The notes under the pieces are model-generated. The model did not search any database. It saw nothing but the letters and a program-made list of their open reading frames with translations, and was not told the origin of the DNA. The translations under genes and the position numbers were made by a program. A stretch of 64,000 nucleotides of DNA, from the NCBI GenBank assembly GCA_010093605.1, contig MU004181.1, positions 496,001-560,000 of the forward strand, read 5' to 3'. Shown here piece after piece: positions 5,538 through 52,290 of this stretch (positions within the stretch are counted from its first letter, which is position 1; each line of letters opens with the position of its first letter). Source of the stretch: Lophium mytilinum. Lineage: Eukaryota.

Positions 5538-6811
5538 GGTCTGGCTTTTGAACGACGACGGAGAGAATTTGCTGCTGGGGGAGAGAGAGTTCACGGTCGG
5601 TGCAGGTTTGGGGGTGTCCTGGCGTTGGGGGTTTGGGTGCTTTTTGTACTTTTATATGTATTTGTACTTTGTACTCGTATTTGTATTTTTATGTGGATAA
5701 TACCAACGTCTCCCCTCCTCATCTCTGTAGCCTCTGAATTGGATGGAACGTGACTTGTGATTGACTGAACTATGCCACTGGCAAGAGTGGCTCATCCTAT
5801 TCTTCTTTTCAACCTTGAATGTAAGAAACCGAAGGCCCTAGATTGGCGACCTATCATCCTAACGTAAACTCATGGTTACGGCGCCGGCAGGAGGGACTCA
5901 GGATGCTCATTGTTCCAACTGTAGAGGGTATAATTCGAAAACGTAACTCGGCTGTCCAGTAAACTACTGTGATTTCAGTATTAAAGCGCTGACAGGAGTG
6001 GTTCAAGCCGTCCTTATTTCCATCGATCAATGTAAAAAGCCGAAGAGTCTTACTTGGACGCTTAGAAACCAACCATAAATGCAATTTAGAGAAGTAGCTG
6101 GAGCAGTTCGACCTATTCTCATTTTCAATCATAGATGTAAGGAGCTGCATAGCATGATTTAGCCTACGAATATATGAACATTGATACAGTGCTATAGTGC
6201 CTCTGGAGCAGCTCGAACGGATCCAAATTATCAAGAGTAATTACATGAGAGACTTCCTTCAATCCGAATAACAATTATAATAGAGATGCAGTTGCTGAAA
6301 AGGTGGTCTAGCACTACGGGAGGAACCAAAAACTAGATGTCTTGATGTAATGTAGTCAAGGCCGTGATTCGTGGGCAATCTTCTTGAATTGCTCCAAGAA
6401 TGCTATTCCCATCGCCTTTTTCAAGCATCTCTGAAATGGTGACCATATCGCCAGCGAGCAATGCCGAGATTGCTAGTTTGGTGCCGCTGTCTGGAGGGCC
6501 CGAGTCAGCTGAAGAGCATTCAAATATGAGTCTGCTCTCATCCAAGCGAATTGGATGTTCTCCAACAAGGCTGAGTTAAGAGGCGTGGGCTGCTATCGTG
6601 GTGGTAGCTGAGTAGATCCTTGACGTCATATCGTTGGCGCTTGCGACGCGTAAAAGCTCGTGAAGACGCCTGCGTCAGTGAAGCACGCCAGAAAAACAGG
6701 AGGTTGTAAGATTAGGTGTTCAGGTCCTTCACCAGCCAATTTGCAGTGATAGGCCCCTTCTAGTAGTTGGGGGCGAATGTGTTGCGAAAAAGAAAAGCAC
6801 TGCACTATGCG

Positions 6812-6822
6812 GGGTCGAACCT
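6812..6822 (-). promoter_or_regulatory. Pol III B box downstream of the U6 gene
   Basis: Minus strand AGGTTCGACCC matches GGTTCGANCC just past the U6 terminator; an extragenic downstream B box is known for yeast SNR6. Confidence 0.75.
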
Positions 6823-6828
6823 GGGGCT

Positions 6829-6932
6829 AAAAAAAATTTGAAGCTACTCTTTGATAAAGCGTGTCATCCTTAGTGCAGGGGCCATGCTAATCTTCTCTGG
6901 GTTCGCAACATATTGACCAAATGCCCGAAGGC
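6829..6932 (-). ncRNA. U6: U6 spliceosomal snRNA, variant (ACAGAGA box reads CCAGAGA)
   Basis: Minus strand GCCTTCGGGC ATTTGGTCAAT ATGTTGCGAAC CCAGAGA AGATTAGCATGGCCCCTGCACTAAGGATGACACGC TTTATCAAAGAGTAGCTTCAAA T8: 5' stem-loop, AGC triad, ISL/U4-pairing region and oligo-T terminator all present. Confidence 0.95.
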
Positions 6933-8682: not shown

Positions 8683-10485
8683 ATGTTCCTCCCCACTGCC
8701 TTGGGCTTTATAGCCGCCTGCTCTTTCATCTCGACCACTTCGGCCTCCCTACATCGGCGCAACAATCCCGCGCAACCACCATGTCCATATCCAGTAAACG
8801 CTTTCCAATATTCCGGATGCTTCAATGACAGTAATCCGTACGATCGAGCGCTTGGAAAGTTTGAGCCGTTGCAAGAGGGCGACATGACGAATGCGCTGTG
8901 TTGGAAATACTGCAAGGCGAGCCCCATGTCTCCACCCTTCAACGAAAGATCGCATGACTGACCAATTTGTCACAGGCAAACAATTACGCGTTCGCTGGAA
9001 CGGAGGCTGGTTATCAATGTACGTGATAGGCGTCCACAGATCCTGCCAAGGTCATACGCTGACGATCTAAGGCTTCTGCGGAACTCAGCTGCCGGCAACC
9101 ACTCAGTATCCAGACTCAACTTGCAACACGACTTGTCAAGGTAATTCTCTGGAGAAGTGCGGAGGTGACGCTCGCCTTTCAGTGTATATAGATCCGACCT
9201 TCCCACAGATCAACGCCACGAGCAGTAATTACGTCTCAAGAGGTTGCTACACCGATGGAAACAGCCGGGCTCTGGATTATCCACAAGACCAGCTCGATGG
9301 ATCGATGATGACTGTGGAGCTTTGCCTAAACACATGTGGTTCGAAAGGATTTTCCTTAGCGGCAGTGGAATTCGCGAGTCAATGCTGTAAGCTGGATCTC
9401 TCCAGTCTTCATCATCTGGTTTATGGAGCACTTCGAACTAACTTCGTAAAGACTGTGATGTTACCCTCGGGCCTTCGGGTCAGCCTACAGGATCCTCGAA
9501 CTGTAGCATGGCGTGCAATGGGAACCCAGACGAAAAATGCGGCGGTGAACTCTTCATGAACTTGTATGAGGCTAAGCTGTTGGAATCGACGGAGCCTTGC
9601 GCACCTCCGGTGTCCTCTTCCAGCTCGTCCTCGTCGTCGACTACGTCGTCCAGCTCAATCTCTTCCTCGGTTTCGCCAAGTTCTACCTCCTCCAGCTCCT
9701 CCAGCTCCTCTAGCTCCTCTAGCTCCTCTAGCTCGTCCCGATCATCTAGTTCCTCTAGCTCGTCAAGTTCTTCAACTTTATCGAGTTCCTCCTCCAGTTC
9801 TTCTCGCTCATCCAGCTCGTCTATTAGTTCGTCGAGTTCATCGAGTTCCTCGTCTAGCTCTTCTAGCTCCTCTCGCTCGTCCAGTTTGTCAAGCTCATAC
9901 AGCTCATCGTCTATCCCCACAACATCGTCTTCCTCAAGCTCGTCTTCACTATCTAGCTCCAGCTCCAGCTCCAGCTCCAGCTCCAGCTCTAGCTCTCAGG
10001 TTCCTCCAAGCAGCACGTCATCATCTTCTTCAAGCCAACGCAGGCCACCACCGCCCTCAAAAACAAAACCCTGGCCTCCACCACCAACACGGCCTCCGCA
10101 TCCTCCCCCACCCCCGATGTGTCTCTGCTCTGGCCCTCGTTCTTGGCGCGGCGCCAAGCTTCCTTGCGTCGGATGCAACGATAATCCACGACAATCCTGG
10201 GAGTTCCCGTTCAAGCTTTTCACATCAAAGTGGACCGACAGATGCCCGGTGTACACGGCGGAGCATCTCATCAAGGCATGCCTCGACGCATGCGAATGGC
10301 AGTACGAGAAATGCTCCAAGGGCGCGGATGCGGACGAAGAATGTACCGCGTGCGAGGAGCAGTATCGGCGGTGCAAGAAGGCGAATCAGCACCTGCGGTA
10401 TCATGGAGAGTGTGGGGGTAGGGGTCCATGGGATCAGGAACCATGCGAGGATGAGGACGAAGACAAGATGAGCTCTGAGTGGTAG
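8683..10485 (+). CDS. Secreted WSC-domain protein (2 WSC domains, Ser-rich stalk, Pro-rich linker, Cys-rich C-terminus); 4 exons
   Basis: Signal peptide MFLPTALGFIAACSFISTTSA; WSC motifs YSGCFND..MTNALCWKYC..FAGTEAGYQCFCG..C..C.GN..EKCGG and YVSRGCYTD..MTVELCLNTC..AAVEFASQCYC; introns 8917-8975 (GC-AG), 9019-9071 and 9387-9451 give one open frame. Confidence 0.9.
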
Positions 10486-21100: not shown

Positions 21101-21458
21101 CTATACTACTCTTTCATCATATCATCATGCTTTCTCAGATGTGTGTGTCTTCCAAGCCTCCTGCGGCTGACCGGCATCCCGTGGAGCGTTTCAGGCTTTT
21201 ACGAGCATCATCTGCCAGTGAAGAGCGGCGTCTGCAACGACCATCCGTGCAGCTTGCTAGTTACCCGTAGCTACTCTAATGGCTATTAGGAACGCTAGTG
21301 TATGTGCATTAAGCTGAAAAGGTGGCTGAGATAACGTGACGTCAATGCAGGTTCCGGCGGGCGCCTCCCCCACGCCCCCATCCCAGGAGCTTAGACCACG
21401 CACTAACAGGTGTCCTAGCACTCTAGCTATATATTTCCTATAAGTTCGACCGTCTTTC

Positions 21459-21581
21459 GCCCTCACCACCGTGGTGAGGGTGGTAATGAAACAGTGCTAA
21501 CGTCTATCATAGTAACATGCCGGGTTCGAGTCCCGCTTAGGCGATGGCGCTTAGAGTCCTTATGAGGAAAACACTTTTTTT
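21459..21581 (+). ncRNA. Unidentified Pol III-type small RNA gene (~120 nt)
   Basis: TATATATTT at -31 (21428); A-box-like TGGTGAGGGTGG (21472); B box GGTTCGAGTCC (21523); T7 terminator (21575-21581); 5' hairpin; no tRNA cloverleaf. Confidence 0.6.
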
Positions 21582-21714
21582 GCTTTTGATCTACTATGTG
21601 GCTCTATCTATAGACGTTGTGTTCTTTTGCTATTGATTTTTGAAGTTGTGGAGTCGGTGATGGTTAGCTGATGGAGGAGAAGGGCGGGGGTGAGGCTAAA
21701 ACTTCCGCAGCAAC

Positions 21715-26815: not shown

Positions 26816-29800
26816 GTAACTAGGCCATGTGAGCAGTCGACATAAGGCTCAAGATAGGACCAACTTACACTAGCATTCCCGACGGTGCCGCTGGTCGGCA
26901 GGTTCCCAGTGCTGCAGCTTAGATAGTCGCTAGATCATGTGAGAATTCTAACACGAGGGCGCAGGAGTTCAACGACTTATGCCACCATGCGCCACGCAAG
27001 TCCGCAGGAGAAATATCCGGAAGCTCGGAATATCGTCTAAACTAACGCCGTTTCCCGAGTATGTCTGCTTTCCGCTTCGGAGGATAGTATCTGCGAGGTC
27101 GTGGACAAGTCTATGTCCCGTCTCGTCTGGAGCCGGATATCTCTTGGCTTTCTGCCCCTATGATATTGGCGTCTGATTGACGATGCGAGATCGAGGCCAG
27201 TCGTTTAAACCCGTGGACAACAAATCGAGCTCAACGGCCGGGAGGCGGACTTGCGGTCGGTGGGAGCGGAAAGGTCGAAGAGGAGGCCGATGGGCCTTTT
27301 TAGACCGTCTCAGCACCATAGCCAAAGCTTGAGGCGGACCTGGCTCGCAGTTGCTGAGTTTCGCGGTTGGAGAACTGGCCTAGTCTTCGGTGCCAGGCGC
27401 GGACCACCAAGCTGCTCGCTACTTCTTCCAGCTCGGGTTTCGTGAAGACATCCTCCTTAGCTGCCCAAGCTGGAAAGAGATGCTGCTCATGCGCTAGAAA
27501 AATCATCTTCGGCTGTTTTTGTTCCCAGATACCAAGTTTCGGGTTGGCATGCAATTTGCGGAGCTTGTCTTTGTATCAGCCAGCGTACGATTCAACCCGT
27601 GATGAACTGACTTGGAAAACGGGCCTGGAAGAAGTGTCTGTTCCTATATTCGTGCTCCGCGTGAAGCCTCAAGAGGCCGATGATCCAAGGTAGGGGCGGC
27701 GGGCGTGGTCGTTGGTGCGGCGGACGGCTTCGGAAGATGGGAAACATGATCAGGGTCAATTGCCGAAGGAGACCTGGCCTGTTCTGTAGATGGCACAGTG
27801 TTGTGGCGAGTGGTAAAAAAGAAGGAATATTGATATTTCAAAGACATGGTGGATTGAGAGAAGGTGCCGCCCGGCAGACTGGCGGGGTCCAGCATCCCCG
27901 AGGCTGGCTGCGTTGCCTACAACTGAGCCAACATGCGATACTACGTCTTTAAAGATTTTATGCCACTCAAGCTTACATTCCCTGACAATTCTCGGGATCT
28001 CTGCATTTTACTTTAGTAGCATCAAGCCATCTAAGGCTCGAGCACAGCGAATCAGCATGGAGCCTCACAGTCATTGCATACCAGCCACGGCTCCCGTGAC
28101 AGTACCTTCCAGAAGCCGGCTGCCTGTCCGCCTGTCTTCCTGCCCGCCTGCCTACCCCGCGTATTGTAAGACTACCACGACTACGTATTGACGTTCTATA
28201 TCTCCACTTCCGATTGGAGCTTGGCTTGATCACATGACACAAGTGGGGCAGCTCGCTTAGGAATTTTCCCGTACTTAAGCTCGCCATCCTCCTGAACTTT
28301 TCACTCTTCAGTCCTGACCAAACTCAAACCCAGAGCACCAAGTCCCACAAGCACCGGTCGTCGACAACGCCCAAAGCACCAACGCTCGGCCTAGCCAGTC
28401 GAGTGCCAGCCACCGGATCCCGGATCAGCCCAGCCTTGTTTCTTCCCTTTTGTTCACGCGTCTTTCTCTGAATCGAATGGCTAACTGCGCTTCTCCCAGC
28501 AACAACATCGCTCGACGGCAGCACGTAACCAGCATAGAAAAAGTAAGTTCCCGACTCCTCCCCCTTCAAACTCACATCAACACATGTACTGAAACCCCCA
28601 CAGGTTGACGCTCAAAGGACAGGGATAGCTCCTCGTACAATGGACTTCGGTTCGTGCGAGAGACGCGAGGACCCAAGGGGCTTCGGCCTGTTAGCTTGGG
28701 GTTTGAACGGGAGGGGGGCCCGTTCCCACCGCAGCTTTTTTTCATTGAGTGGCTCGCCTTGTGCGGGTGCTTGAAGAAGAAGAATCAATCTCTGCCTTCA
28801 TCAATCTTTTGTGTGTCATGGTTGTGACGTGACTGTGACGTGCGTTGCTCGCTGTGCGTGGTGTTGAGGCTTTTGGCTTTCGCACAAGGCTATCGGACGC
28901 GTCGAAGGCGGGAACTACGTGACGTGAAGACCTGCAGCGTTCTTGGTAAACCCTCTTGGTAGCTAGATGTAGAGTTTGGGTCTCTTTGCCTGCTTTCCGT
29001 CCAGCGCCGTGGTGTTGAGCGTGGCTTCCCGATGGATGTTCTCACGCCACCCCAAGCTGAGCGCGCCTTGGTCAACCCCCGGGCACGACGCCACCCTTTC
29101 CAAGGCCGTGATCAATATAGCTCATATATCACATCTTCACGCATCGTTGCGCATCACTGCCGCAAAATGCGCAGACGCGGTGGTGAAGTTATCGTCTCTT
29201 TTGTGATGCCGACCGACCTCCACGGCAAGCCCTCTCCGGACCAGTCTGCCACTTCATAAACATGATGCCAAATTTCATGATTCCTGCCTCAATTAATGCG
29301 CTGCCTTCTCCGCTGCAATCGCGCATCCTCCAAATGAGCATCCTGGTTGTGGTTGTGGTGTTCTGCTCGGCGCAGATGCCGAACGGTGCGGCTAGAGGGT
29401 CGACGGGGAGCTGGCATAAGACGGGTTGGGAGAGGAGGGTGACAACGCTTTGAGCTGCATATACTATAATCACAATGCGGACTCTCTGTTGCTCAAATGC
29501 AACCACGCAGCTTCACAAATCTGATTTGATATTATTATGGCGAAGTTGTGGCTGCAGACAGGATGTGGCTATCTGTGACATCGTGCAGCGACAGAACTTC
29601 GTGAAGTCGCAACATCGCGACGATTCCGCATGTCGCGGGAGGTATCGCGGAGCTATAGAGCTTGAAAACGGTATGATTCCCGCAAGGGGCCCGCTGTGAA
29701 ATGTGCATCTACTCAGTGGCGGACGATACTGCTTGCCGTAGATGCCTGGCCGAGCGCTCGGCCAGACCACGAAGTAGCACACCACCTCCCTCGAAACTCA

Positions 29801-42729: not shown

Positions 42730-43060
42730 GTTGGATCCCGCTATCCAAGCTTTAAATTCCCACTATTTCCATCTGCAAAAGCATATCTCGTACCTCAGAC
42801 GATGGCAGGATTCACAGATGTAGGGATCTGTTTATTGCATTCGTCAGAGTTTGCCAGCTTGGAGTGAAGCGAGAGTGTAGTCAGTCATGGGTCGACGCTT
42901 GGCGGTGAATGGACAGTCTAGCGCGAGCCGAGCGATATTTCTGTCAGAACCTCCACTTCCCTTCAACCGTTCTTTTGCCTCCTACACCTCTCCACCCCAC
43001 CCTACATCAGTGTTGCCAGAACGACACACTTGCAGTAATCCACACACCCCACCCGTACCC

Positions 43061-44251
43061 ATGGCGTCCGACGAGCCCGACATCGTTGATTCACTGATGC
43101 TCGACATCGGGGCTCAAGTCAGACCCGTCATCCCCGAGAGGCCACACGCGACGATCACGAAAAACAAGAGCATTCGACATCGAGCTCACACTCCGCTGGC
43201 GGACTTACCGCCAAAGTCTAATCCTTTCCGTGCGACTCGTCATTACGGGCCCCTGTTACAGAGCCAACTTAGGAGTGCTACGACGAACGCGCCACCGAGA
43301 GCACAGAAACACACGCCGAAAAACCACGAGCTTGTGGAATTCAAAGGATATCTAGTCCCCTCTGGCACGGATTATATCGATGGTCAAGGCCCGCTGTTAC
43401 TGAGATTTGGATCGGTTTCCGACGACCTTCTAGCTCTGCCAGTGGATGAGATTTTCCAGGAGATTTTGAGACAGTGGAATGAGCGCGTAGACATGGGGGA
43501 TGATGCGCTCAATAAGCAATGGCTGTGCGAGTACTGCGGGCCACATCACTTGCAGACCGGTGGCTCCGTGGTTGATCATCTCAAACAAAAACATCAAGAC
43601 GTCCTCGACCGATGCAGGCAGGATATCTTTGCTCTGAAACTCCGCTTTGATCTGCGTATCCAAAGCTCAATTTTCGAGCCACCCCTCTTTGGTTACTGTG
43701 AGCACGCCCTTATGTGGGCTATCGATGAGTACCAGTCAATAACGGCGCTGCCTAGCTATGGCTCCTTTTCCTTCGAAGAACATAGGTTGGCAGACTACAG
43801 CCGAGGAAACCGTTTCAGCCCTCCGGGGTTCCCGCGTTTCGTACCGCGGACCGAACTCGTCCCGCGAGTGGTGCCATGTTGCTCACAGCCGAACTATCAC
43901 GAGATTATGTTCTTGGAGCGCGAGGAACTCCAAAGCATCACTGCCTATGAGGCTTTCAAAGACATCTCGTTTGAAGAGCTCCGAATGCGGGACTACGAAG
44001 AAGGTCGACTCTATGGGATTCTCGGTCGCCCAAAGCCTAAGGACCTCGTTCACACCCTGCACCCAATAACGCAAAAGATTGAGGCGGAGTTCGACAAATT
44101 GGCTATTGGTACGGTTCCTTACAAAAGCCGAATCCTGCTGCGACACATCCTGGATCAAGTCGAGGATAGCATGGCGTTTGGTTCAGCGCGCATGACGAAC
44201 AGGGACAGGGAACCTGATTGGGCTGGCGTTGATATGTATTGTGGTACGTAA
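43061..44251 (+). CDS. Protein with a C2H2-type zinc finger and two GLEBS-like motifs; may splice to downstream exons
   Basis: WLCEYCG...DHLKQKH; YQSITALPSYGSFSFEEHRLADY and LQSITAYEAFKDISFEELRMRDY; GTACGT donor just before the stop; ORF open from 42887. Confidence 0.7.
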   Translation: MASDEPDIVDSLMLDIGAQVRPVIPERPHATITKNKSIRHRAHTPLADLPPKSNPFRATRHYGPLLQSQLRSATTNAPPRAQKHTPKNHELVEFKGYLVPSGTDYIDGQGPLLLRFGSVSDDLLALPVDEIFQEILRQWNERVDMGDDALNKQWLCEYCGPHHLQTGGSVVDHLKQKHQDVLDRCRQDIFALKLRFDLRIQSSIFEPPLFGYCEHALMWAIDEYQSITALPSYGSFSFEEHRLADYSRGNRFSPPGFPRFVPRTELVPRVVPCCSQPNYHEIMFLEREELQSITAYEAFKDISFEELRMRDYEEGRLYGILGRPKPKDLVHTLHPITQKIEAEFDKLAIGTVPYKSRILLRHILDQVEDSMAFGSARMTNRDREPDWAGVDMYCGT

Positions 44252-48074: not shown

Positions 48075-49287
48075 TTACATCTCAATAATAACCTTGAGCG
48101 CCTTGTTCTCCGCCGCCGCCTGGAACGTCCCATACGCTTTCTCCATATCCTTGAACGGGAACGTGTGCGTAATAAGCTTATCCGCGGGCAGCTTGTTCGC
48201 CGCAAGAAGCTTGAGTAGCATAGGCGTAGTGACCGCATCGACTAACCGAGTCGTGATTGCTAACACCATACATTAGCGAACATCGCGCTTGATCAACCCC
48301 ACCAAAAAGCAATAGGGAGTACTCACAAACATTCCTATCCCACAGCTTCTCTAGATGCAAATCCGCCTTCACCCCATGCACGCCCACATTCGCAATCACA
48401 CCCCCCGGCGCAACCAGATCCTGACACTGCGTAAACGTCGCCGGGATCCCCACAGCCTCAATCACCGTATCGCACCCCTTTCCCTCCGTAACCTCCTTCA
48501 CCAACTCCTCCGCCTGGCTCGGCGTCCCTGTATACCCCGCCCCAAACGCCTTCGCAACCGCCAACCGATTCCCATCCGGGTCAATCACGATCAGAATCCC
48601 CGGCGAATACAGCTGCGCCGTCAACAGCGCCGCCAAGCCCACCGGTCCCGCGCCGACCACCACAACGCTCGACCCTGGCTCGACTTTCCCATTCAGCACG
48701 CCGCACTCGAACCCCGTGGGCAGGATGTCCGATAGCATCACCATCGTCGCCGGCTCCACGCCCTTGGGGATCTTATATAGGCTGTTCTCCGCATACGGAA
48801 TCCGGACGTACTCGGCCTGCGTGCCATCGATCGAGTTCCCCAGAATCCACCCGCCAGACGCGCAATGCGAGGGCATGCCGCGGCGGCAATACGCGCAGGC
48901 GCCGCACGCCGAGATACAGGAAATCAAGACAGGATCACCGGGCTTGAAGGCGGACACGCCGGCGCCAGTGGACTCGATAACGCCGACGCCCTCGTGGCCG
49001 AGGATAGTGCCAGGCGAGCAGGTGGGCACGTCGCCTTTGATGATGTGCAGGTCGGTGCCGCAGATGGTGGAGTGGGTGACTTTGACGATGGCGTCGGTGG
49101 CCGCGGTGGGCGAGGGCTTGGGCCGTGTGGTGAGGGAGATGCCGGCGTTGGGGCCGTTGTAGACGAGCGCGTTCATGGTGGATACGCCACGCGCCGAGAT
49201 GTAGAAGGATTTGGTGGAGAGGGGCGTGTGGGTGGCATGTTTGGCGGTGTTGCGCAGTAGTGTGAAGGCGGAGGATCGGGAGAGCAT
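48075..49287 (-). CDS. Zn-dependent alcohol dehydrogenase (MDR/GroES-like), 2 exons, probable mitochondrial presequence
   Basis: ICGTDLH, GHEGVG, structural Zn CGACAYC..HC and GAGPVG motifs; intron 48326-48260; Arg/Ser-rich N-terminus MLSRSSAFTLLRNTA before MNALVYNGP. Confidence 0.95.
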
Positions 49288-50061
49288 TTTGGGGTTTGGG
49301 ATGTGGAATTGGTGTTGGTGGAGGTGAGGTGGTTGAGGTAGGACGATGGAGGCTCTTGAAAAAGGTGGGCGACGACGCGCGTTGACGGGTTTAAAAGACG
49401 CGTGCGGGGTGGGGTGGGCAGACGCCGGAGCATGGGATATGGTGTCGTGACCTGACAATCTTAGGTGGGTAGATACGGTCATAGGATGACCAAGTCAGAC
49501 GTTGTGAGGCTGAGACTGCAATATTTGTGGGGCCATCAGGAGATGTTTTAAAGACTGCCGGGAATCCGAATAGTGCCAAACGAGTCTTTGAAAATCGAGT
49601 ATGTAAAGACTGATGACTAGAAATCCAATTGCGGGGTATATATCCCGGCCATGAGAAAAGTAACAGATAGCGATTCGAGTAATCTTGATGGCCTAGAACA
49701 AATGGTATATATCAGGTGAGATTTTAAAGATCACGTGACTTGGACCAAATGCCGATGCGTACCGGACACATCTTGAACTCTATTCGTATTCCTGGAGACT
49801 TTAAAATTGGCCTTGAAGAGCTGCTAGAAGACGAAGAGAAGTGAAAATGAAAGATCTTACCATCTGGCGACTCTTGCTCTCCGGACATTTGCTCACATAG
49901 GATAAGGCTATGACATCTGGGAATGATCATGAAAGAGGAGGAAAAAACTACATGCGCATGGATGCTGATAGATGCCATGTTCCCTGTGATAGTAGTATAA
50001 ATGATTGTAACGCCGAAACACCTACGCTATGCAGTCCATGACGGTTCGCCGCTACGCCACC

Positions 50062-51735
50062 TCACCAACTGTCGAAATTTCCGAAACCACCAGATTTGGC
50101 TTTCTTCTTCGCCGGTTGCTCGATTTCATCCCAGTCCCCAATGATCTCGTCTTCCGCCTTGGACGCTCCGCCATCTTGCATCGCCGCTTTCAGGTATTTC
50201 CCTACTCCCGGTCCACCTCCTGCAGCTTCGACCTTTCCGTCAGGTCTTATCCTCTTCCCCGTCCATGTGGTCTTATCATCCTCTCTTCCTCCTTGTAGCC
50301 GGATCTCCTCCTCTTCTCTCTCCTTGTCCTCTTTCTCCGTTCGCTCCTTTCGGAACTCCTCAAATGGATCCACAAAAACTACGACATCCAGAATCATGAG
50401 ATCCTCATCTGGTCTATCCTTGTCGCCGGTTTTGGCGTTCTCCATGGCCGTGAGAGTGGTATCCAGTCCTCCAACAACCTTAGCAAAGATGGAGTGCTTC
50501 CTATCCAGATGCGACGCTTGCCGATATAGGATGAAGAATTGCGACGTGTTTGTGTTCTTGCCCTTGTTCGCCATGCTTATGACTCCTCTCGCGTTATGAA
50601 GTAGTGGGCCCTCGAGCTCGTCGTTGAATGGCTTGCCCCATGTGCTTTGCCCACCTTTTCCAGTGCCTGTTGGATCACCACCCTGGATCATGAAATTCTT
50701 GATATTTCGGTGAAAAACGGTACCCTTGTAGTATCCCTTTTTCGCCAATTGTACAAAGTTCCAGACCGCTTTCGGAGCGAATTCGGGGAGGAGTTCGATG
50801 TTGAGATCGCCGAGAGAGGTAGAGATGCGCGCGTAGCCTTTCTGCTTTACGCGCTTCGGTCGCAACATGTAGTCTTCCTCAGATAGAACGGCGCGCTCGG
50901 CGGAGGTGTGGGGTGTCCATCCCGTACTGGTGAAGGACGCAGCAGCCTTGCCAGTGGTGTATTGGGCGGCATTGTAAGGCTTCGGTTTCGACCCTTGCGC
51001 TGCGGAGTGTGTTGCGGTCGCATTCTTCGCTTTCGCGATAGCTACAGCATCATTACTCGCCTGCGACTTTGCCTGCCTGTCTGCGCGAGCTTTCGCGACA
51101 GCTTCCTTGGCGCGCAAAATCTTCCCAGCACTCCCGAGCGCGTCTATATTCACGTTGCTCTCATCCGGGGCCTGCGCCGTAGTCTCGCCATCTTTGATAT
51201 GTTTGAATGCGCTCAGGTCCCGCGACTCGATGTTCTGCGGATCTTGCAACGTTATGATATCTTTCCGCGTAAACTCATCGTCGCTGACCAGATCGCGCCA
51301 GTTCTTCGCCTTGATGTTCAGTCGCTCGACCGTGTCCCAGGCAAACACGTTTCCGGTATTCTTCAGCGTGACGATGTGAGTATTATCCGTGAAGACCTTG
51401 TACGTGACCGGGTCCACGTACTCGTTGTCCTCGTTCTTCGCGAAGTGGAGGGTGATGAGGTCGGCGCGTTTCAGCGGCGCCCCGTCAATGGGATTCGTGC
51501 CATGCTTCTGGAGCCAAGTGAGGATGTGGGTGAGGTCGAATATGGTGCCCGCGGCGGTGCAGACGGGATCCGTGAAGGGCTGGAGGGAGACGGCGCAGAA
51601 GTTGAAGGGAAGGCGCTTGAATGAGGAGCCGACGCCCTTCGACTTGGAGGCGTTGAAGCCGCGGCTGGTGCCAAACGAGTCTTCAGAGGCCCATTCCGAG
51701 TGAGTGATATAGAGCTTGTCGGTATTTTTGCCCAT
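50062..51735 (-). CDS. PPIL2: Peptidyl-prolyl cis-trans isomerase-like 2 (Cyp60/PPIL2 type; U-box plus cyclophilin)
   Basis: MGKNTDKLYITHSEW and KRLPFNFCAVSLQPF (U-box region); FHRNIKNFMIQGGDPTGTGKGG and SMANKGKNTNTSQFF; C-terminal FGNFDSW. Confidence 0.95.
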   Translation of the reverse strand: MGKNTDKLYITHSEWASEDSFGTSRGFNASKSKGVGSSFKRLPFNFCAVSLQPFTDPVCTAAGTIFDLTHILTWLQKHGTNPIDGAPLKRADLITLHFAKNEDNEYVDPVTYKVFTDNTHIVTLKNTGNVFAWDTVERLNIKAKNWRDLVSDDEFTRKDIITLQDPQNIESRDLSAFKHIKDGETTAQAPDESNVNIDALGSAGKILRAKEAVAKARADRQAKSQASNDAVAIAKAKNATATHSAAQGSKPKPYNAAQYTTGKAAASFTSTGWTPHTSAERAVLSEEDYMLRPKRVKQKGYARISTSLGDLNIELLPEFAPKAVWNFVQLAKKGYYKGTVFHRNIKNFMIQGGDPTGTGKGGQSTWGKPFNDELEGPLLHNARGVISMANKGKNTNTSQFFILYRQASHLDRKHSIFAKVVGGLDTTLTAMENAKTGDKDRPDEDLMILDVVVFVDPFEEFRKERTEKEDKEREEEEIRLQGGREDDKTTWTGKRIRPDGKVEAAGGGPGVGKYLKAAMQDGGASKAEDEIIGDWDEIEQPAKKKAKSGGFGNFDSW

Positions 51736-52290
51736 GGTGGATGGCTAGAGGAGTGATTGAAATGTTATGTCGATGACCGTTTTCGAAGGTTTTCGGCAGC
51801 GGTTCTTCCGTCCCGTCTTGGCCGCGCTATTCTACTCTATTTCCACCTGCATCTCAAGCTCTGTTGGACCAACACACTATCAGCAAGACCGAGAAAGGGC
51901 AGCTCTTTAACCGGTAATCTTCCAGCTCTGCACTTTGTGGATACGATTTTGTGAAGGGTGAAGAGCTTTAATATAGCCTTGCCAGTCCTCTTACAGCCTT
52001 CTCTTTTACGCCGTCACACTTTACGGCACTTATCCTTCACTTCCCCGTCGGCAACTTAGCTGCTTGTTATTGCTGGAATATCTTTAACGGAAATATGTTG
52101 ACCATACATTGCTGCACCGTTTGTGGCGCTACTCAACAGCCACACCTTGTCTGAAACAGCCCCTAGATGACCCTCGTTCAGCCAGGCCAAGCGGAGCATC
52201 TCAGGCCTCGTTTTCTTGGCGTCAGTCAACAGCTCGTGAACTGTGCCCTCTCGCCAAAGGCTCATCAGTAGATAGCTGCCAGTTCCTAAC

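Follow-up and report, generated by a model that had tools for sequence, protein, structure and literature searches.

A probable tRNA-related RNA polymerase III small-RNA gene with a U6-type TATA element in a Dothideomycete fungus

The promoter of the yeast U6 gene, as described in PMC5855946, combines a TATA element with an A block and a B block that are read by TFIIIC and TFIIIB. The same source gives an average of 2.3 U6 genes per fungal genome, and it describes the U6 RNA of S. pombe as spliced by the spliceosome (PMC5855946). Given these two points, a diverged U6 paralogue and a spliced transcript of RNA polymerase III (Pol III) are each possible. Outside the fungi, the rodent 4.5SI and 4.5SH genes, in the account of PMC10137851, contain, besides boxes A and B, a box at -31/-24 that resembles a TATA element.

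Here we describe an element at positions 21428-21581 of a 64-kb stretch of fungal DNA, the whole of which was analysed and is called the window below. An earlier note on this DNA had presented the element as a Pol III small RNA containing a hairpin-masked mini-intron that fits a variant U6 RNA encoded in the same window. The solid outcome of our analysis is modest: the signals of the element provide good support for an orphan Pol III unit, which is probably a tRNA-related small-RNA gene without a match to any known family. To our knowledge, few Pol III genes have been described in filamentous fungi beyond those for tRNA, 5S, U6, SRP RNA and RNase P RNA. A conserved and expressed tRNA-derived RNA with a U6-type TATA element would, if real, be one more fungal Pol III gene and would give rodent 4.5SI and similar RNAs a counterpart in the fungi. 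A literature search found no such RNA in filamentous fungi; the U6 survey of Canzler et al. 2016 entered this search only as it is reported in PMC5855946.

Promoter signals and genomic setting

We identified the following signals of Pol III transcription in the element:

21428-21436, plus strand: TATA element TATATATTT, at -31 to -23 from G21459
21459, plus strand: predicted transcription start, a G (purine after pyrimidine), placed from the TATA spacing
21472-21483, plus strand: weak A-box-like stretch TGGTGAGGGTGG, one mismatch to a loose consensus
21523-21533, plus strand: B box GGTTCGAGTCC, an exact match (11/11) to GGTTCGANNCC
21575-21581, plus strand: T7 run, predicted Pol III terminator

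The window also contains a U6 gene, located 14.5 kb from the element:

6832-6932, minus strand: U6 snRNA gene, matched by Rfam RF00026 with 70 bits
6954-6962, minus strand: TATA 9-mer TATATATTT of the U6 gene, 30 nt upstream of the start of the Rfam match
6811-6821, minus strand: B box of the U6 gene, directly downstream of a T8 terminator

The TATA 9-mer TATATATTT occurs twice in the 64 kb, where 0.13 copies are expected and none of 100 shuffled sequences reaches two. One copy belongs to the U6 gene, the other to the element, and there is none elsewhere in the window. The two are identical at nine of nine positions, and their spacing to the start agrees within 1 nt. We place the putative start of the element at G21459 because of this spacing, the U6 gene having the same 9-mer 30 nt before its Rfam match. 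The B-box pattern GGTTCGANNCC is likewise found at two sites, compared with 0.52 expected in the window, and these are again the U6 gene and the element. No further promoter motif common to the two was seen beyond the TATA element. The T7 run is followed on its 3' side by more runs of four to five T (21584-21587, 21624-21627 and 21636-21640), and T7 runs by themselves show no enrichment (7 in the window, 6.0 expected). The earlier note had listed a U6-type TATA element at -31 from a G, a B box and a T7 terminator for this locus, and each of the three can be read from the DNA. Its claim of an A-box-like element stands in part. The stretch TGGTGAGGGTGG is present, and its position at +14 from the predicted start suits a type-2 promoter. 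However, its likeness to an A box is at chance level, as the loose consensus with one mismatch has 371 such matches in the window.

It is the occurrence of the signals together, and no single motif, that points to Pol III. A TATA element, a B box and a T5 run follow one another in this order on one strand at two sites in the window, the U6 gene and the element, and one in 1000 shuffles contains any such site. From these counts it is very probable that the element is a true Pol III unit, ~121 nt long, with a fungal promoter of the TATA plus A/B type. It is very improbable that there is no gene here and that an AT-rich box, an 11-mer resembling a B box and a run of T have come together by chance in a gene-poor region. 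The chance level of the A box would fit such an accident, and so would the surrounding 25 kb, which are almost without Pfam-recognisable genes. However, the ordered conjunction is as rare in shuffles as stated above, and its sole other occurrence in the window is at a true U6 gene.

The host of the element is, as judged from a cyclophilin frame, a Dothideomycete fungus near Mytilinidion resinicola and distinct from that strain. The named protein that most resembles the 560-aa frame comes from M. resinicola, with which it is identical at 472 of 489 residues (97%), and it is this identity that places the host close to M. resinicola; the relatives that come next belong to other Dothideomycetes and reach at most 79%. 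The protein-coding features recognised to the right of the element are:

42881-44251: frame with a Nup98 GLEBS-like motif, below the Pfam cut-off
48178-49494, minus strand: zinc-type alcohol dehydrogenase
50062-51744, minus strand: Cyp8/PPIL2-type cyclophilin with a U-box, the 560-aa frame

Closer to the element, between 8 and 36 kb, there are 50 open frames with a length of 110 aa or more, only one of which contains a Pfam domain above the cut-off (WSC, 9071-9556). No Pfam domain is found within ~10 kb on either side of the element, and the short open reading frames that run across it stop at once. This part of the window (8000-36000) is gene-poor or lineage-specific, and its GC content of 0.49-0.56 does not give it the look of a RIP-degraded region.

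Words sampled from 21400-21620 were recovered at a share of 0.90 in two DNA sequencing runs and of 0.00 in a run labelled 'RNA?'. An air-metagenome run contained 0.10 of the sampled words from the same interval, which is no evidence on habitat or conservation. Exact and gapped patterns of the element had no matching loci in four scans that covered metagenome, prokaryote genome and viral contigs.

The window also contains no second copy or fragment of the element, which argues against a tRNA-derived SINE copy or another retroposed Pol III element. An internal promoter of the A/B type, a tRNA-like T arm (described below) and a length of ~120 nt would all suit a small SINE, as such elements are described in PMC7279448. 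However, we saw neither flanking direct repeats nor an A-rich or simple-repeat tail, and a retroposed copy would have had to land, by coincidence, at a site that offers the very TATA element of U6 at the spacing of a gene. On these observations within the 64 kb we consider a retroposed origin improbable.

RNA structure and relationship to tRNA

The ~121-nt RNA predicted from these signals would contain three structural features:

21460-21469 and 21471-21480, plus strand: perfect 10-bp inverted repeat CCCTCACCAC/GTGGTGAGGG with a 1-base spacer
21519-21536, plus strand: T-arm-like hairpin that includes the B box GGTTCGAGTCC, pair probabilities 0.78-0.98
21493-21506 with 21538-21551, plus strand: predicted long helix with the T arm on top, ensemble probability ~0.99

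The inverted repeat, already described as perfect in the earlier note, would form a hairpin at the very 5' end of the RNA. With the additional pair G21459-U21481 it comprises 11 pairs, all with probabilities of ~1.0 in the predicted ensemble. Perfect 10-bp inverted repeats with a spacer of 0-5 nt number two in the window, where 0.38 are expected. The other is a 20-nt palindrome with 10-bp arms and no spacer at 29746-29765. The 121-nt RNA has a predicted folding energy of -40.0 kcal/mol (z -2.4), and 2 of 200 shuffled sequences are as stable. When the 5' hairpin is removed, the remainder folds like its shuffles (z -0.03). For this reason the 5' hairpin is the sole structure above chance, and the long helix is a prediction only. 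A complementarity between 21499-21514 and 21592-21618, beyond the terminator, was dismissed as chance since 42 of 200 shuffles are as good.

The T arm reads CGGG-TTCGAGT-CCCG at 21521-21535, which gives it the GTTCGA loop typical of tRNA, and its stem requires a bulged C. The sequence does not fold into a tRNA, as the earlier note had also held. ARAGORN reports no tRNA gene in the window, either by default or when introns in the anticodon loop and reduced thresholds are allowed, and the Rfam tRNA model has no match to the element at E<=10. An intron-bearing or mitochondrial-type tRNA was rejected on the negative ARAGORN result. Only when the ARAGORN threshold is lowered to 70% does a poor cloverleaf model appear, over 21457-21545. 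It contains five of seven acceptor pairs (TCGCC/GGCGA), a 4-bp D stem (CCAC/GTGG) and the T arm, together with an anticodon stem of 3-4 bp and a misplaced 7-nt 'intron'. The tRNA positions U8, A14 and U33 are missing from the element.

Two rearranged forms of a tRNA were considered by eye. In a permuted or split tRNA, TTAGGCG (21537-43) could pair with CGCTTAG (21548-54), followed by a 4-bp hairpin. This form was ruled out: it lacks a G18-G19 loop, has neither an anticodon stem that bridges the ends nor any pairing of leader with trailer, and the hairpin has an ensemble probability of 0.0. Deletion of 21462-21480 restores a 7-bp acceptor stem (CGCC+TGG with TTAGGCG) and U8/A9. However, this deletion was chosen post hoc, and one arm is still missing after it.

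Outside the tRNAs, Rfam finds nothing that accounts for the element. At gathering scores the U6 gene is the only match in the window, and a scan of 401 nt around the element has no match at E<=10, the tRNA model included. A narrower scan of 141 nt returns three matches of only 11-13 bits: a plant C/D snoRNA model, an miRNA model that matches the complementary strand, and the T arm of mascRNA. The last covers 15 nt with 11.3 bits, compared with a gathering score of 42.5, and is the sole tRNA-like signal in Rfam. The miRNA and mascRNA identities were rejected because of these low scores. The 5' end (a hairpin followed by UGGUAAU) has a likeness to the SRP Alu domain that finds no support in Rfam. 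The Rfam scan that the earlier note had named as a check thus yields no family at or near the gathering threshold. Because the ARAGORN and Rfam scans are negative, the predicted RNA is none of tRNA, 5S rRNA, SRP RNA, RNase P/MRP RNA, Y RNA, vault RNA or a known snoRNA. The earlier description of the locus as a Pol III-type unit outside the known families is therefore borne out, its promoter layout being like that of the U6 gene in the window and no known family being matched.

A box C/D snoRNA transcribed by Pol III occurs in S. cerevisiae, namely snR52. The weak match to Rfam snoZ157 extends over 21474-21563, places GUAAUGA at the C box and UAGA at the D box, and provides an 8-bp terminal stem in which four of eight pairs are G-U. 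However, it scores 13 bits (E = 6.7), far from the 55 required for gathering. Moreover, the RNA contains no CUGA at any position, and the G that a kink-turn needs is missing from its C box. A degenerate box C/D snoRNA is an extremely unlikely identity for this element.

The explanation that we favour, to which we give about an even chance, is that of an active orphan Pol III gene, single-copy in the window, which is derived from a tRNA gene and produces an unspliced RNA. Its transcription, start site, tRNA ancestry and absence of splicing are all features that we infer from the sequence. Following the established mechanism of yeast SNR6 and tRNA genes, TFIIIC would bind the internal B box (21523-21533) and perhaps the weak A box, and would position TFIIIB over the -31 TATA element. 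Pol III would then start near G21459 and stop in the T7 run. The product would be an RNA of ~121 nt with a 5' triphosphate, a 5' hairpin of 10-11 bp, a T arm like that of tRNA and, at its 3' end, an oligo-U tail. Its ancestor is most likely an intron-bearing tRNA gene, judging from the low-threshold cloverleaf. The T arm, the five of seven acceptor pairs and the 4-bp D stem would have been kept from this gene, and the tRNA fold would since have been lost. Two observations weaken the case for tRNA ancestry: any B box would mimic a T arm, and the cloverleaf appears only at the 70% ARAGORN threshold. The chance level of the A box and the shuffle-like folding of the RNA outside the 5' hairpin also count against the explanation that we favour.

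The main rival is a tRNA gene in decay, that is, a pseudogene whose Pol III signals survive by chance or because it is young and whose RNA, if any is made, has no function. We regard this as possible and on the whole unlikely. Under this explanation a template-switch (quasi-palindrome) mutation overwrote the 5' acceptor strand and the D-stem strand in one step, and the perfect arms and 1-nt spacer of the 5' hairpin are the expected product of such a single event. The eroded acceptor and anticodon stems of the cloverleaf found at low threshold, its length of 87-89 nt, which suits an intron-bearing tRNA, the bulged C that the T stem requires and the lack of structure beyond the 5' hairpin would all be consistent with decay. 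However, the B box, TATA element and T7 run are intact beside the eroded stems, a pattern that is unlikely under uniform neutral decay. Moreover, the decay would have to be deep, since the tRNA covariance model finds no match at E<=10. The intact state of the TATA element (9/9), the B box (11/11) and the T7 run next to eroded tRNA stems suggests that the promoter has been kept by selection, as expected of the active gene that we favour.

A candidate mini-intron and the unusual U6 gene

The earlier note had further proposed that the element contains a short intron. Its motifs are all present at the coordinates below, and it is defined by these motifs only:

21474-21512, plus strand: candidate 39-nt mini-intron (GTGAGGGT ... 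TGCTAAC ... CATAG)
21474-21481, plus strand: donor-like GTGAGGGT
21495-21501, plus strand: branch site TGCTAAC
21508-21512, plus strand: acceptor CATAG

The elements GTGAGG, GCTAAC and TAG are all found, and the branch A is located 12 nt before the AG of the acceptor. Such a set arises by chance in ~0.5% of shuffled elements (103/20000), or 0.007 times per 123 nt at the shuffle rate of the window; the set was found post hoc. Across the window the same motif model finds 10 short candidates, compared with 7.3 in shuffles, and it is for this reason a weak detector. At 39 nt the candidate is the shortest of the short ones in the window. The others, themselves candidates only, measure 47-64 nt, and most of them have a T at +6 instead of a G.

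The U6 gene of the window is indeed a variant, as the earlier note had claimed. Just 5' of the CAGAGA core it differs from the strongly conserved family consensus by two substitutions and one extra base; the AGC triad and the region of the internal stem-loop look intact. The bases at +5 to +8 of the donor are complementary to four atypical bases of this U6. The complementarity, on which the earlier note had based a link between the two RNAs, is confirmed as a match of 4 nt that was picked post hoc.

If the element and the variant U6 formed a dedicated pair, the 39-nt intron would be cut by the spliceosome, its donor GUGAGGGU would be tuned to the U6 paralogue, and an internal anti-donor resembling U1 would hold this donor in the 5' hairpin. 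The complete set of donor, branch site and acceptor (~0.5-0.7% by chance per element), the fit of the donor to the four atypical U6 bases and the TATA 9-mer common to both units, 14.5 kb apart, can be cited in favour of this explanation, and S. pombe U6 is an earlier example of a Pol III transcript that undergoes splicing (as described in PMC5855946). However, none of our further comparisons lends it support. The match to U6 is 4 nt long and was found post hoc, and the intron is short next to the 47-64 nt of the other candidates. The donor is predicted to be locked in the hairpin with a probability of ~1.0. Joining the exons brings no gain in structure, as shuffles of the joined RNA tend to be more stable than the joined RNA itself (z +0.86). 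Taken as a whole, the element pairs with U6 no better than expected by chance, with the best duplex equalled by 131 of 500 shuffles. Donors of the form GTRAGGGT are not enriched in the window (6 sites, 3.1 expected; 8 of 100 shuffles reach 6), and none of the remaining five has a branch site and an acceptor. Finally, matches to the motif model itself exceed those in shuffles only slightly across the window.

The spliced intron suggested in the earlier note, and a role of the RNA as substrate or partner dedicated to the variant U6, thus find no support in these comparisons, which do not refute them either. We consider this explanation most unlikely, and the mini-intron and its tie to the unusual U6 are probably a coincidence. 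The active, unspliced gene that we favour leaves the intron motif set (~0.5% by chance) and the 4-nt fit to U6 as coincidences of this kind. Were the intron real and dependent on the atypical U6, this would show that a dedicated substrate can be served by a U6 paralogue whose stretch for binding the 5' splice site is altered, and it would bear on the handover of 5' splice sites to U6. With such a private pair of snRNA and substrate, the spliced Pol III transcripts that are known would be of two kinds, the first being the U6 RNAs of some fungi.

Comparison with known systems

The element resembles fungal U6 genes of the SNR6 type, as these are described in PMC5855946, in possessing a TATA element ~30 nt upstream, a B block of the TFIIIC type and an oligo-T terminator. 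In addition, a stem-loop begins at the first transcribed base in both, although for the element this is a prediction. There is no similarity to U6 in sequence or structure, however, and the B box of the element lies inside the RNA at tRNA-like spacing, whereas that of U6 is located downstream of the terminator.

With tRNA genes and pseudogenes the element shares a canonical T loop with a B box, a spacing of ~40 nt between the A-box-like stretch and the B box, a length that would suit a tRNA with an intron, and remnants of the acceptor and D pairings. Unlike a tRNA gene, it is recognised neither by ARAGORN at normal thresholds, with or without introns, nor by the Rfam tRNA model at E<=10, and it has an acceptor stem of 5/7 pairs and an anticodon stem of 3-4 pairs and is without U8, A14 and U33. 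The mascRNA of MALAT1 offers a more local likeness. The T arm of the element matches the mascRNA model, and the predicted helix topped by this arm resembles an acceptor/T minihelix. However, the match extends over just 15 nt and reaches 11.3 bits of the 42.5 required for gathering.

The S. pombe U6 gene is comparable as a fungal Pol III unit, and its intron is a spliceosomal one of the mRNA type (PMC5855946). In the description given by this source, that intron holds the B box and adjoins the catalytic AGC triad (PMC5855946). In contrast, the candidate intron of the element holds the A-box-like stretch. Within the literature searched, no other established Pol III transcript spliced by the spliceosome was found besides S. 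pombe U6.

The closest functional analogue that we can name is the rodent 4.5SI type of gene, and the comparison is one of analogy. The lineages are unrelated, and the sequences show no similarity. 4.5SI genes exist in many copies and have been shown to be expressed, whereas the element is a predicted gene with one copy in the window. As described in PMC10137851, however, 4.5SI is a gene for a small nuclear RNA of ~100 nt that descends from tRNA, and its internal type-2 promoter also requires an upstream TATA-like box, which has the same position as the TATA element described here.
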